Source: Roseiarcus sp.
Lineage (GTDB): Bacteria; Pseudomonadota; Alphaproteobacteria; Rhizobiales; Beijerinckiaceae
Assembly (NCBI GenBank): GCA_036488815.1
Contig: DASXGX010000040.1
Coordinates: 50,447 to 114,446 of the forward strand
Direction of reading: 5' to 3'
DNA length: 64,000 bases
Positions 59,759 through 64,000 of this stretch are shown here, in pieces. Each line of letters opens with the position of its first letter. Position 1 is the stretch's first letter. Below the pieces are notes generated by a model. It was not told the origin of the DNA and searched no databases. It saw only the letters and a program-made list of their open reading frames with translations. The position numbers were made by a program, and so were the translations under genes.

Positions 59759-60190
59759 CTAGGGGGCGGCCGCCTTCTCATGCTCGGCGAGGCCCACCGC
59801 CTTGTAGTCGTAGGTCGGATAAAATTCGGTCCGATACACGCCCCAGGCTGTGTCTTCGAGGACGCGATTGACTTCGCGCAGGCGCGAGGCGGGCAAGCGC
59901 AGGGTGACAATCTGGCCGATGCCCATCGCGACCACCCAGCTCACGACCTCGACGCCCGGAGGCGGAAACGCCTTGTAGAACCCCTGCCGCGCGAGTTGCG
60001 CGTTCAGATCACCGAGCGGGCGCGACTCATCGTGTCGGAGAAAGATGGTGAGCAGGACGGCGTTGTCCGCCGTCGCCGTCTCGGAGCCCGCCGGCGGGGC
60101 TGCGACCGTCTGCGCTGCGGCCTCGCCGCAGAGCAACCCCATGATGAGAGCCGCGGCGATCGGCGCGCGGAACTTGAAACCTTTGGTCAT
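59759..60190 (-). CDS. Exported hypothetical protein
   Basis: Signal peptide followed by a compact domain (LTIFLRHD...FPPPGVEVVSW...GIGQIVTL...TEFYPTYDY). Confidence 0.7.
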   Translation of the reverse strand: MTKGFKFRAPIAAALIMGLLCGEAAAQTVAAPPAGSETATADNAVLLTIFLRHDESRPLGDLNAQLARQGFYKAFPPPGVEVVSWVVAMGIGQIVTLRLPASRLREVNRVLEDTAWGVYRTEFYPTYDYKAVGLAEHEKAAAP

Positions 60191-60277
60191 GGCTTCAGCC
60201 TCACAAGCAACGTTGGCGGGGCCGATCTCGCCACCGATACGGCGCGGCGCCAAGCGCGAGTTTTGCACGTCGCCTGA

Positions 60278-62578
60278 TCAGGCGACATGCAGTGCGCTCC
60301 GCCCCTCGAGAAGCTTCTCGACTGCGGCGCTCGGGATCGGCTTGCTGAACAGATACCCCTGCCCCTCCGCGATCGGCCCCAGCCGCTTCATCCGTTCGAG
60401 CTGCTCGGTCGTCTCGACGCCTTCGACGGTGACGACCATGCCGAGCTGGCGCGAAAGCCGTGCGACGTTCTCGATCAGGATCGCAGCCTTCTCCTCTTTG
60501 TCGGAAAGGGCCGTGAAGGACTGGTCGATCTTCACCTTGTCGAGCGGGAAGCGCATCAGGTGGCTGAGGCTGGAATAGCCCGTTCCGAAGTCGTCGAGCG
60601 CGATCCTCACGCCGAGCGCATGGATTCGCTGCAACGTGTTTTGCGCCGCCTGGCTGTCTCGCAGCAGCGCGGTTTCCGTGATCTCGAGTTCCAGCCGATT
60701 GGCCTGAAGCCCGGCCGCATCGAGGGCGCGCCGCACCGCGTCGTAGAGAAAATCCGCCTCCAATTGCTTGGCCGAAACGTTCACCGACACACGAACGTGA
60801 GGCGGCCATCGCACCGCGTCGGCGCAGGCGCGCTGAAGCGACCAAGCGCCGAACGCGTGAATCAAGTTGAGCTCTTCGAGCGCGGGAACGAAGGCGGCGG
60901 GAGAAATCGGTCCGCGGGTCGGATGGATCCAGCGCGCCAGCGCCTCGCAGCAGACGACGGCGCGCGTCTCCAGATCGACGATGGGCTGGTAGACAAGCGT
61001 GAACGCCTGCTCCGCCAGCGCGACGTGCAAGTCCAGCTCCAGCAGGCGCCGCTCTTGCGCGTCCCTGCTCATCGCATCCTCGTAGACGCGGTAGCGACCG
61101 CGGCCCTCTCGCTTGGCGGTGTAGAGCGCCATATCCGCCTGCTGCAGAATGACGTCGGCGCACGGTTCGCCGCCGATCGCGACGGCGATCCCGATGCTCG
61201 CCCCGAGCACGATCTCGGCCCCCTCGATCGAACTCGGGCGGGACAATTCGGCGATGATCTTCGCCGCGTAGGCTTCGATAGGCGTCGACCCCGCAAGCTT
61301 CGTGCGCAGGATCACGAATTCATCGCCTCCCCAGCGCGCGATGAAATCGTCCTTGCCCGCCAGTGCACAAAGCCGGTCCCCCGCAATCACGAGCGCCTTG
61401 TCGCCGACTTTGTGTCCGAGCGTGTCGTTGACCTGCTTGAAGCGGTCGAGATCGATGAACAACACTTCTGTGCGTCCGCCGCCCACGCGCGACGCCGCGA
61501 GCGTCTCCGCCAAGGCGACCTCGAAGGCCCTGCGATTGCGTAGATTGGTCACAGAATCGAAGCGAGCCATGTGGTCAATGGCTCGTTCGGCCTCGCGCTT
61601 CTCGGTGACGTCCTGAACGACGATCACGCAAGAGCCGTTGGAATGGCGCCTAAGCGTGACGTCGTAGAGGCGCCCGCCGGCCATCTCGATCTGCACGTCG
61701 CATTGGCTGGCCTCGGCGTTGGCCGTCATAATTAAGTCGAGGAGCCTATCGGCGTGCTCGTGGGAAATCGCCCCGCGCTCGATCGCCTCCGACAGCAAGG
61801 ACGTGAAGTCGACATGGGTGACCGCGGCGTCGGCAGGCATCCCGAAAAACTCGGCAAACTTCGCGTTCGAGACGAGAATGAGCCTGCCGGTCGAAATCAT
61901 GCACATGCCGTGCGACATGTTGTTGATGGCGAAGTCGAACTGCGCCGCGATGCTCTCGGAACGGCGACGATAGGACATCTCGCTGAGAAGCGTGCTGCGC
62001 AATCGCGTCGCCGACGACTGAACGAACATCGAGAGGGGCGCGACCAGCATCGGGATCAGCAGGAGGAAAAAGCCCCCGCGAACTAGAAAAGCGCTCGCGA
62101 GCGGCACGGCAACTGCCGCGACTTGCCAGCCGACGCCCTTTTCGACCGCGAAATTTCGCAGCGCTATGGCCGCGGTATTGGCGATTGCGACGGTCAGACC
62201 AAGGACAAGAACGAAAGTGTCGGAGGACCACACGATCGCAATAAAAGCGAGGGCGCCGATCCCGAAAAGGTAGGCGCACACGCCCAGAATGTATTCTCTT
62301 TCTATCCGCCGAATATCGGCGCCACTCCCCCTCAATCGCGATCGCGCTCTGTTTTGCCTGAAGAGGGCGAACCTCATCGCTGTCACGACGATGAGTCCGA
62401 CCGTTGCGACGTCCGCCGCCCATTGGCCGGTAAGAACAGCGATGACCAACCCGCTGAGCACCGTTACGAACGAGCCGAGCATCATCGATTGCTCGTCGGC
62501 GAACAGGGACTCGACCAACCCGCACCGTACATCGTCGGGCAGGTCGCCTTTTTCGCAACGCAAAGTCTGCTCAGACAT
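60278..62578 (-). CDS. Multi-TM PAS-GGDEF-EAL c-di-GMP signalling protein
   Basis: About 6 N-terminal TM segments, PAS (AINNMSHGMCM), DLDRFKQVND, GGDEF, EAL, DDFGTGYSSL, EGVET, GQGYLF. Confidence 0.92.
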   Translation of the reverse strand: MSEQTLRCEKGDLPDDVRCGLVESLFADEQSMMLGSFVTVLSGLVIAVLTGQWAADVATVGLIVVTAMRFALFRQNRARSRLRGSGADIRRIEREYILGVCAYLFGIGALAFIAIVWSSDTFVLVLGLTVAIANTAAIALRNFAVEKGVGWQVAAVAVPLASAFLVRGGFFLLLIPMLVAPLSMFVQSSATRLRSTLLSEMSYRRRSESIAAQFDFAINNMSHGMCMISTGRLILVSNAKFAEFFGMPADAAVTHVDFTSLLSEAIERGAISHEHADRLLDLIMTANAEASQCDVQIEMAGGRLYDVTLRRHSNGSCVIVVQDVTEKREAERAIDHMARFDSVTNLRNRRAFEVALAETLAASRVGGGRTEVLFIDLDRFKQVNDTLGHKVGDKALVIAGDRLCALAGKDDFIARWGGDEFVILRTKLAGSTPIEAYAAKIIAELSRPSSIEGAEIVLGASIGIAVAIGGEPCADVILQQADMALYTAKREGRGRYRVYEDAMSRDAQERRLLELDLHVALAEQAFTLVYQPIVDLETRAVVCCEALARWIHPTRGPISPAAFVPALEELNLIHAFGAWSLQRACADAVRWPPHVRVSVNVSAKQLEADFLYDAVRRALDAAGLQANRLELEITETALLRDSQAAQNTLQRIHALGVRIALDDFGTGYSSLSHLMRFPLDKVKIDQSFTALSDKEEKAAILIENVARLSRQLGMVVTVEGVETTEQLERMKRLGPIAEGQGYLFSKPIPSAAVEKLLEGRSALHVA

Positions 62579-62641
62579 CGACCGCTCGCAGCTAAACTGC
62601 TGAGGAGCCAAACACAGATCGATTAACAGAATGCTCGCGGA

Positions 62642-63367
62642 CTAGGCGTCGGTGAGTGCGCTCTCCGCCGCATCTCCGATGGCTTGCCTGACTCCTCTCA
62701 AGATATTTGAGGATCTCTCGAAAAGCTCCGCGCGTTCCGATTCGCTCGATCGATAATATGGATAGCGCCTGTGGAGCGCCTCCCGCTGGTTCCGGCATTC
62801 GTAGCGCAGGAAAGCCATCGGTTTGTTCAAGTTAGGGTATTCGCGCGCCTCAGCCCAGGGGATGCAGCGATACATGCGGCGATAGAAAGCTTGATGCTCC
62901 ACGCGGCACGCCACCGTGATCAATTCAGCTCTGAAGTGCTCCTCAGCAAGAAAGATGGGACGTAGAATTATGTACGGCATCTCCGGATGACGTTGCGAAT
63001 ACTCGAGTTTGCTCACAAATCTCGTGCCGTCGATAAGCGTGCGGCCGGCGCCGAGAAGCGGCGTCAGGAGGTCGGGATACACCTCCGTCGCAGGCAATGG
63101 AGCGCTCAAGCTCGCAGAAACGTGCAACCGCAGCGAGCCGGCAAGGTCGCCGTCGATGAACAATCCAACTAGCCAGACGTTCGGTGTCTCGTCCATAGGA
63201 TCATGAAAGAGGCCCGACGGCTTGGGGGCGATGGTGCCGGCGCGGGTATAGGCCTCGTGCCGCATGGCGAAGATCGCCGCCTTCTCTTCCGGCGTTTCCG
63301 CGCGCCGATATTCCACACGCTCAAGCAGGGAGAAAACCCGATCGTGCAATTGGCGAGATCTTTCCAA
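62642..63367 (-). CDS. FeeM-like N-acyl amino acid synthase / LuxI-fold GNAT acyltransferase
   Basis: RVEYRRAET.EEKAAIFAMRHEAY, HDPMDE, AGSLRLH, LPATEVYPD, IDGTRF, HQAFYRR. Confidence 0.7.
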   Translation of the reverse strand: MERSRQLHDRVFSLLERVEYRRAETPEEKAAIFAMRHEAYTRAGTIAPKPSGLFHDPMDETPNVWLVGLFIDGDLAGSLRLHVSASLSAPLPATEVYPDLLTPLLGAGRTLIDGTRFVSKLEYSQRHPEMPYIILRPIFLAEEHFRAELITVACRVEHQAFYRRMYRCIPWAEAREYPNLNKPMAFLRYECRNQREALHRRYPYYRSSESERAELFERSSNILRGVRQAIGDAAESALTDA

Positions 63368-63382
63368 TTTGAAATTTCCTAG

Positions 63383-63397
63383 TTAGCAATGCGTTAA
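63383..63397 (-). promoter_or_regulatory. Possible CtrA box
   Basis: Minus strand reads TTAA-CGCATTG-CTAA(C), one mismatch from TTAA-N7-TTAAC. Confidence 0.45.
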
Positions 63398-63519
63398 TGA
63401 TTGATTACAAATCGTTGCGATTGCAAGGGGCGCCATATGGGGGGTCCACAGCCGGCGCGCCCGACCTGTTGACGGCGCAACCCCTTGCGAGTCACGGCCC
63501 CGCCCGGCATTGTCGGACG

Positions 63520-64000
63520 ATGACGCCCACCCCCGCCAAGCCTGGCGCCGAGACCGGCGCCCTCGCCAATCTCGACGCGCGCGCCCGTGAAATCTTCCGC
63601 CGTATCGTCGATTCCTACCTTGCGAGCGGCGAGCCCGTCGGCTCGCGCCATCTCTCGCGCCTTCTGCCGATGTCGCTTTCGCCGGCCTCGGTGCGCAACG
63701 TGATGCAGGATCTCGAGGAACTCGGCCTCATCTACGCCCCGCACACCAGCGCGGGGCGCTTGCCGACCCAACTCGGCCTGCGGTTCTACGTCGACGCGCT
63801 GCTGGAATTCGGCGGTCTTGCGTCCGAGGAGCGCTCACGAATCGAGAACGAGGCGCGGGTTGCGGCCGAGGAAGGCGGCTATGAGGGCGCGCTGACGCAG
63901 ACGACGGCGCTCCTGTCCAACCTCACGCGCGGCGCCGGCGTCGTGCTGACCAGCAAGAACAACGCCCACATCAAGCACGTCGAATTTGTCCGTCTCGAAC
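63520..64000 (+). CDS. hrcA: Heat-inducible transcription repressor HrcA (3' truncated by window edge)
   Basis: Translated by hand: [43 protein letters not shown]...[30 protein letters not shown]. Not in the ORF track because there is no stop codon in the window. Confidence 0.95.

Follow-up and report, generated by a model that had tools for sequence, protein, structure and literature searches.

In the RpfF-RpfR system of Burkholderia cenocepacia and Cronobacter, which uses the signal BDSF, the gene for the synthase adjoins that for a PAS-GGDEF-EAL receptor of its fatty-acid-derived product, and RpfR also binds RpfF physically through its FI domain. In the CqsA-CqsS system of Vibrio (signal CAI-1) and the LqsA-LqsS system of Legionella a hydrophobic autoinducer is detected in a six-helix membrane domain with negligible periplasmic loops, while the staphylococcal agr and Bacillus comQXP pherotype loci employ peptide signals and histidine kinases, their type specificity having been shown experimentally. 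Synthases of N-acyl amino acids have been known since early metagenomic screens; enzymes of this FeeM type are found in biosynthetic clusters, standing alone, or beside exosortase systems, and to our knowledge none has a cognate sensor. Here we describe a gene pair in a stretch of 64,000 nucleotides from Roseiarcus sp. (assembly GCA_036488815.1, contig DASXGX010000040.1, positions 50,447 to 114,446; henceforth the window), in which a FeeM-family N-acyltransferase of 241 amino acids, a candidate acyl-amide synthase (62642..63367, minus strand), is encoded next to a cyclic di-GMP (c-di-GMP) enzyme of 766 amino acids with six transmembrane (TM) helices followed by PAS_7, GGDEF and EAL domains (60278..62578, minus strand), which we call the sensor. 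We propose that the two probably constitute an undescribed pair of self-made lipid signal and receptor that is common in rhizobia-like bacteria.

By analogy, the window pair would work like RpfF-RpfR in its proposed logic without being a member of that system. Both place a synthase beside a PAS-GGDEF-EAL protein, and in the Rpf case the signal is turned directly into a change in c-di-GMP; however, RpfF has a crotonase fold whereas the window synthase has the GNAT/FeeM fold, and RpfR is soluble, holds its ligand in the PAS domain and lacks the six-TM N-terminus of the window sensor. We know of no co-varying synthase and receptor allele types for Rpf. The CqsA-CqsS and LqsA-LqsS systems likewise have the synthase gene beside the sensor gene, a layout that recurs in a histidine kinase variant of the present family described below, but CqsA is a pyridoxal phosphate-dependent acyl-CoA transferase with a phosphorelay as output, in contrast to the FeeM-type synthase and c-di-GMP output here; homology to the Cqs/Lqs TM domains was not detected, a comparison limited to the absence of Pfam and PDB matches for the window domain. 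The pair resembles LuxI-LuxR in its related GNAT-type synthase fold, LuxI-like residue spacing, a partner encoded alongside and the existence of solo receptors, yet LuxR is a cytoplasmic transcription factor whereas the window partner is a membrane c-di-GMP enzyme, and the window synthase has no Autoind_synth match. With the known FeeM-type and N-acyl amino acid synthases it shares both Pfam family and fold, and by analogy its chemistry is probably theirs, namely the conversion of acyl-acyl carrier protein (acyl-ACP) and an amino acid to an N-acyl amino acid, although in the window subfamily further elements are conserved at the N and C termini. As in agr and comQXP, a hypervariable segment takes in the signal gene and only the sensing part of the receptor, while the flanks on one side and the catalytic part on the other are conserved, and the alleles predate the species and group differently from their flanks. 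The window components are not members of the RpfF-RpfR, CqsA-CqsS, agr or comQXP families. In a literature search we found no published link of FeeM or synthases of N-acyl amino acids to GGDEF/EAL proteins or quorum sensing, the results for the word 'FeeM' being swamped by unrelated acronyms.

The association of the two genes is widely conserved. Of 21 loci with FeeM homologues, most of them from the window's genus, the FeeM gene adjoins one for a six-TM-PAS-GGDEF-EAL protein in 19, in three arrangements, with FeeM upstream of, divergent from or downstream of the sensor gene. We further searched an even sample of 301 genomes from the order, among them the one that holds the window, with a profile of the TM domain and with the FeeM model PF21926. 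The TM-domain profile matched in 49 genomes from 24 of 130 genera, and in every one of the 34 other genomes with a strong FeeM match (E<=1e-34) that match shared a contig with the TM match at a distance of 2.4-3.4 kb, which places FeeM directly beside the sensor gene. The pair is therefore present in 35 of the 301 sampled genomes, counting the window's own. In 9-kb regions from other families FeeM adjoins the sensor in 18 of 20 loci, usually just downstream of the EAL domain, and the adjacency recurs in a dozen or more families; among the genomes showing it are complete ones from cultured Bradyrhizobium, Mesorhizobium, Tardiphaga, Devosia, Pelagibacterium and Phreatobacter. Look-up of exact sequences identified the carriers as Bradyrhizobium sp. 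KBS0727, Afipia, Tardiphaga, Mesorhizobium, Devosia, Pelagibacterium, Phreatobacter and Bauldia, whose proteins are annotated as 'hypothetical', as 'FeeM domain-containing' or, once (in Bauldia), as 'AHL synthase'. The conservation of this neighbourhood, which the initial annotation had proposed as a check, is thus borne out, and the pairing of FeeM and sensor is not due to chance. The window's genome itself has a second, divergently oriented pair (locus L034; FeeM at C2:92241-92984, plus strand, and sensor at C2:89050-91401, minus strand), whose FeeM is 41% and whose TM domain is ~32% identical to those of the window; the presence of a second pair of another type suggests two separate channels in one cell. 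In several loci from metagenome-assembled genomes (MAGs; L035, L037, L039, L044, L045, L053 and L054-L057) the sensor gene is split by frameshifts, which may be errors of long-read assembly or true pseudogenes.

We then found that the synthase shares its history with the membrane domain of the sensor and not with its catalytic half. When the window is compared with its nearest positional orthologue, L001, both flanks show ~94% nucleotide identity, while positions 61750-63530 show 65-80%; correspondingly, synonymous divergence (dS) is 0.96-0.98 in FeeM and the TM domain as against 0.14-0.26 in GGDEF, EAL and the flanking genes, or 0.97 as against 0.17 when each set is given as one value. As the ratio of nonsynonymous to synonymous divergence (dN/dS) in this segment is 0.21-0.29, the high dS points to an older allele rather than to local acceleration. 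A third locus, L054, has more distant flanks (83-87%) and nevertheless carries the window's type, with nucleotide identities of 82% in FeeM and 87.5% in the TM domain, such that the segment and its flanks group the window, L001 and L054 in opposite ways. Based on identity, dS, guanine-plus-cytosine (GC) content and this three-genome incongruence, we delimit a hypervariable low-GC cassette (61750..63530) that extends from the region upstream of FeeM through FeeM itself, the spacer and the TM domain into early PAS. The lower GC content that the initial annotation had seen by eye holds for FeeM and the TM/early PAS part (~61500-63400, 0.56-0.62 against 0.64-0.70 in the surroundings) but not for the GGDEF-EAL part.

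The same relationship emerged from a comparison of identities and trees across 19 FeeM/sensor pairs. Pairwise identity of FeeM correlates with that of the TM domain (r=0.90) and PAS (0.88), and less so with that of GGDEF (0.56) and EAL (0.53); in the pair L036 and L049, for instance, the catalytic halves are 90% identical while FeeM is 38% and the TM domain 24% identical. In approximately unbiased (AU) tests a clade common to the FeeM and TM+PAS trees is rejected by the GGDEF+EAL data (p-AU 7e-6), and a catalytic (GGDEF+EAL) clade is in turn rejected by the FeeM and the TM+PAS data (p=2e-7 and 3e-5). As linkage might by itself cause co-variation where the FeeM gene lies directly at the sensor gene's 5' end, the loci with the order sensor-then-FeeM were tested, and in these FeeM still tracks the TM domain best (partial correlation given the catalytic part 0.63, permutation p=5e-4). 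An individual case is provided by L105 and L106, both from one Mesorhizobium-like genus and with FeeM downstream of EAL, in which the TM domain (62-67%) and FeeM (50-59%) form two separate divergent blocks on either side of a 1.5-kb middle comprising the PAS C-terminus, GGDEF and EAL (85-92%), with the outer flanks at 85-93%. Judging from these comparisons, the co-divergence of FeeM and TM domain is more than mere linkage, and the type of the synthase has changed repeatedly together with the membrane part of the sensor.

By sequence profile the synthase belongs to the FeeM family: its sole Pfam match is to PF21926, with E=1e-37 and 129.9 bits (cut-off 27) over profile positions 1-157 of 158, and the same model is matched by all 98 homologues found (98/98). 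A check against autoinducer synthases, also suggested at the outset, gave no Autoind_synth (PF00765) match for the window FeeM or its genomic paralogue with the threshold relaxed as far as E<=10. The FeeM core corresponds to residues 31-189, and conserved outside the Pfam model are a helix-strand at the N terminus (residues 7-23) and an extension at the C terminus with the pattern RYPF..S..ER..LF (residues 201-216). A search of the PDB with the single window sequence gave nothing useful. The best fold match of the AlphaFold2 model (predicted local distance difference test score, pLDDT, 93.9) is FeeM itself (2G0B; E=2.7e-11, target TM-score 0.82), with weaker matches to the acyl-homoserine lactone (AHL) synthases BjaI, MesI, EsaI, LasI and TofI (E 1e-6 to 1e-5) and with other GNATs (E ~1e-6) also behind 2G0B; sequence identity to the known FeeM-type enzymes is just ~16-17%. 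Invariant in the subfamily are R36, Y40, D56, D59, G73, R80 and R116, with D/E at 113, and the spacing of R36/Y40/D56/D59/R80 and of D113-x-T-R116 is LuxI-like. The best match in a profile search of the PDB was the AHL synthase TofI, a weak one (E=0.13), whose alignment sets D/E113 (D/E-x-T/S-R116) opposite the Glu of the ELSRF motif; the catalytic acidic residue of known enzymes is Glu95 in FeeM and Glu103 in Nas354. Family and modelled fold suggest an acyl amino acid as the product. The exosortase-type acyltransferase family TIGR03694 was considered and rejected, there being no match of the window protein at E<=0.01 and no exosortase genes among its neighbours; 9 of 21 relatives match it weakly (best E=3.5e-5). 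Separately, the window FeeM weakly matches the first ~220 residues of NF011425 (PRK14852; E=9e-10), a family of 989-aa 'hypothetical protein' sequences, which indicates that a FeeM-like domain also exists fused within a much larger protein.

The sensor combines matches to PAS_7 (residues 218-332; 61583..61927, minus strand, the first half within the variable cassette), GGDEF (PF00990, E=1e-38; residues 339-494; 61097..61564, minus strand) and EAL (PF00563, E=4e-66; residues 516-747; 60338..61033, minus strand). The GGDEF domain is intact, with RWGGDEF, DLDRFKQVND and GHKVGD present and GKDD in place of an RxxD I-site, and its motif is at least 90% conserved across 54 family members, while the EAL domain has every catalytic motif (EAL, NVS, ELEITE, DDFGTGYSS, KIDQSF, EGVET and QGYLF); both domains are conserved and, from these motifs, both look active. 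Preceding them at the N terminus are a membrane sensor domain and the linker helix that belongs to it (residues 1-217; 61928..62578, minus strand), delineated by topology and conservation; the domain falls into no known family. Hydropathy and an AlphaFold2 model (pLDDT 82.6) agree on six hydrophobic helices, at about residues 29-50, 53-74, 95-117, 120-141, 149-167 and 169-188, joined by periplasmic loops of ~3 residues, and in the model TM6 runs on as a single long helix into PAS. Conserved in this domain are G35, R69, E93, Y96, G108, D120, R141-N142-F143, Q152, P159, G168 and P181. No Pfam match was obtained for the N-terminal 217 residues at E<=10, nor any PDB sequence match for the TM-PAS region, and Foldseek with the TM-PAS model returned PAS domains only and no structural relative of the TM domain. 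The architecture claimed by the initial annotation (about six TM helices, PAS, an intact GGDEF without RxxD and full EAL motifs) is thus upheld by Pfam, hydropathy, the AlphaFold2 model and the translation, as is the placement of a FeeM/LuxI-fold acyltransferase directly upstream in the same orientation, but its label 'c-di-GMP receptor' was wrong, as a protein with intact GGDEF and EAL is a c-di-GMP-metabolising enzyme.

We examined the contexts in which the membrane domain occurs beyond these pairs. A search with the TM-domain profile against 1.84 billion representative proteins gave 420 matches, with the domain N-terminal in all. Of 54 long proteins with the domain, 52 have GGDEF (51 of these with PAS_7 and 46 with EAL), and the other two are hybrid histidine kinases without PAS. 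One of these kinases (P0152; L060:454-2730, plus strand) links the six-TM domain, without PAS, to HisKA-HATPase-REC-Hpt, and beside it lies the N-terminus of a divergent FeeM (L060:2-241, minus strand; PF21926 E=5e-8, 39% identity to the window FeeM), cut by the contig end. A single-domain response regulator is encoded downstream of this kinase. No FeeM is visible on the 4.9-kb contig (L061) of the second kinase, P0261, just upstream of which lies a small gene for a PilZ-domain protein (L061:838-1152, plus strand). The tie between the synthase and the hydrophobic sensor domain that had been claimed at first is supported by the conserved pair, by co-variation with the TM domain and by this kinase variant; what does not stand of that claim is the term 'receptor' and, for the genome as a whole, the phrase 'without LuxR'.

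Sensors and synthases also occur apart. In 14 genomes of the 301-genome sample a TM-domain protein is present without FeeM at E<=1e-5, among them G240 (a complete genome), G217, G070, G164, G204, G239 and G271, five of these seven being from one genus; by analogy, these look like solo sensors comparable to the LuxR solos, and sensors in genomes that lack FeeM fit a diffusible signal. Conversely, genome G007 has two FeeM paralogues (L038:6112-6870 and L040:5893-6702), ~50% identical to the window's, with no sensor within 6 kb. The one paired sensor gene of this genome looks frameshifted, and the L038 and L040 FeeM look like solo synthases.

In light of the above, we propose, with what we regard as an even chance of being right, that the pair is a cognate signal/receptor module in which an acyl-amide made by FeeM is sensed in the membrane by the six-TM domain and shifts c-di-GMP, and of which many matched types exist. 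The FeeM-type enzyme would join a fatty acyl chain, probably from acyl-ACP, to an amine acceptor, probably an amino acid, to give an amphipathic acyl-amide that would partition into the membrane. There it may be recognised by the cognate six-helix domain of the neighbouring protein, which is nearly devoid of periplasmic loops, and the signal would pass along the TM6-linker helix and PAS to GGDEF-EAL, shifting cellular c-di-GMP. Synthase and sensor domain would form many matched types, traded or kept as alleles in the manner of pherotype loci. By the comparisons above, these matched types are older than the species carrying them, and such old types, traded or kept, point to a signal that passes between cells and is specific to its type. 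What the comparisons show is the anatomy of the genes, the conservation of the pair, the history common to synthase and TM domain, and the FeeM fold; the nature of the product, its membrane binding, an effect on other cells and the direction of the c-di-GMP shift are inferred. As GGDEF and EAL both look active, c-di-GMP might move either way. More broadly, and with rather less confidence, on balance leaning against it, we suggest that the Hyphomicrobiales might use an unrecognised class of quorum sensing in which a FeeM lipid amide acts through a six-helix domain on c-di-GMP (rarely on a phosphorelay), with mutually specific dialects and eavesdropping solo sensors. If this is true, it would provide a physiological role for N-acyl amino acid synthases, whose native function has been described as unclear (PMC4897644); it would define a new membrane sensor domain without a Pfam family; and it would represent a second kind of system, besides BDSF/RpfR, that wires a self-made lipid signal into c-di-GMP, with pherotype-like diversity. 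The module may be relevant to biofilm formation, motility and the colonisation of roots, and as it is present in culturable soil and symbiotic rhizobia it is directly testable.

Several points weigh against the proposal of a lipid signal read in the membrane. Co-variation cannot tell the reading of a lipid signal from direct contact between FeeM and the sensor. Relative to L001 the sensor varies most in its N-terminal tail, which is cytoplasmic (25% identity), and in loop 75-94 (40%). A variable tail and loop on the cytoplasmic side would be as much in keeping with a protein-protein interface to FeeM as with a ligand pocket, if not more so; the divergence per segment does not distinguish ligand binding from protein contact. 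Furthermore, dN/dS is below 1 throughout, so that diversifying selection is without direct support, the groups in the AU tests were chosen after the trees had been seen, related genomes are non-independent samples, neither an exporter nor any further accessory gene accompanies the pair in a conserved way, and the amine acceptor cannot be read from the sequence.

The alternative that survives best, which we consider unlikely but serious, is that FeeM binds the TM/PAS module directly from the cytoplasmic side, the sensor either scaffolding or controlling the synthase, much as RpfR holds RpfF through its FI domain, or having FeeM as an accessory regulatory subunit, with the lipid as an output such as a surfactant or a membrane or matrix component. 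Co-evolving interfaces would produce the co-variation of FeeM with TM and PAS equally well, the most type-variable segments of the sensor are precisely that tail and loop 75-94, and the conserved C-terminal extension of FeeM beyond its catalytic core could be read in the same way. The nearest precedent that we found is in the N-acyltyrosine synthases Nas343 and Nas354, which carry a fused PilZ domain and so link this enzyme class to c-di-GMP (PMC4897644). However, direct contact does not sit well with sensors in genomes without FeeM, the complete genome G240 among them, or with FeeM genes that have no neighbouring sensor (L038, L040), and the old, exchanged allele types are explained more easily by discrimination between cells.

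A structural role of the lipid is, in our view, improbable. Here FeeM would make a membrane aminolipid and the six-TM enzyme would monitor membrane composition, as in lipid homeostasis or envelope stress, for which one might cite the almost complete embedding of the TM domain in the membrane and the fact that acyl-amide lipids are membrane constituents in many bacteria. Yet a housekeeping lipid would need neither many matched types nor two divergent pairs in a single genome, nor the swapping of old alleles between near-identical flanks, and the pair was found in just 35 of the 301 sampled genomes of the order.

We hold it to be very improbable that the FeeM-like enzymes are non-canonical AHL synthases that feed the LuxR-type proteins of the genome, their adjacency to the sensor reflecting co-regulation. 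The initial annotation had described the circuit as 'without LuxR', and this is correct for the neighbourhood, there being no LuxR gene within the window, but not for the genome, which on other contigs encodes two LuxR-type solos (Autoind_bind + GerE; C133:5448-5873, plus strand, L058, and C138:10468-10905, minus strand, L059). A genome with two FeeM-like genes, two LuxR solos and no PF00765 match is what an unconventional synthase would lead one to expect, although the PF00765 search likewise matched nothing in any control genome, so that the absence of LuxI is weakly supported; TofI as the best PDB profile match (E=0.13), the LuxI-like residue spacing and the AHL synthase annotation of the Bauldia orthologue could be added to this. 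On the other hand, Autoind_synth fails to match even at E<=10, FeeM (E=3e-11) is closer in fold than any of the AHL synthases (E ~1e-6), and the LuxR genes, besides being on other contigs, have unrelated neighbours (a phosphopantetheinyl transferase and a flavin mononucleotide (FMN) reductase in one case, a phasin and a UDG-family gene in the other); nor would AHL synthesis explain co-variation with the TM domain or the 34/34 adjacency. A 251-aa open reading frame (ORF) beside one of the solos was ruled out as a hidden synthase (hhalign probability 0.3%). Finally, fortuitous adjacency, with the divergence as a recombination scar or an artefact of MAG assembly, has next to no chance of being correct, for while many of the compared loci do come from MAGs with frameshifts, the adjacency extends over no fewer than a dozen families and is seen in complete genomes from cultured bacteria, and the same divergence pattern is seen independently in another genus (L105/L106).

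At the window locus the FeeM gene begins with TTG, 8 nt downstream of an AGGA ribosome-binding site, and is separated from the sensor gene by a spacer of 63 nt between its stop codon and the sensor ATG, as read from the sequence (62579..62641, minus strand). The longest ORF of the sensor is 60278-62611, but the gene caller (product P0001) and the homologues favour the ATG at 62578 as the likelier start, which gives 766 amino acids. No terminator-like site was found between the two genes on the minus strand, and from their arrangement the two are likely to be co-transcribed. Upstream, FeeM and hrcA diverge from an intergenic region within the variable cassette (63368..63519), across which identity to L054 falls to 0.68. 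The promoter of FeeM presumably lies in this region, in which there was no match to a sigma-70 consensus. For hrcA (plus strand), the longest ORF opens at 63397, and the L054 homologue and the sequence point instead to the ATG at 63520 (MTPTPAKPG...), a start that leaves a divergent intergenic region of 152 nt shared with FeeM. The neighbours of the pair in the window are hrcA, DUF308, PPDK, a thiamine pyrophosphate (TPP) enzyme and TauE; the flanking genes are common only to L001 and L054, the other loci of the genus lying in different contexts. Starting 10 nt past the sensor stop is a small ORF (59759-60268, minus strand), the likely product of which, of ~142 amino acids and without a Pfam match, has a signal-peptide-like N-terminus (MTKGFKFRAPIAAALIMGLLCGEAAAQ). 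This ORF is kept only in the positional orthologues L001 and L054, and does not accompany the FeeM/sensor pairs elsewhere.

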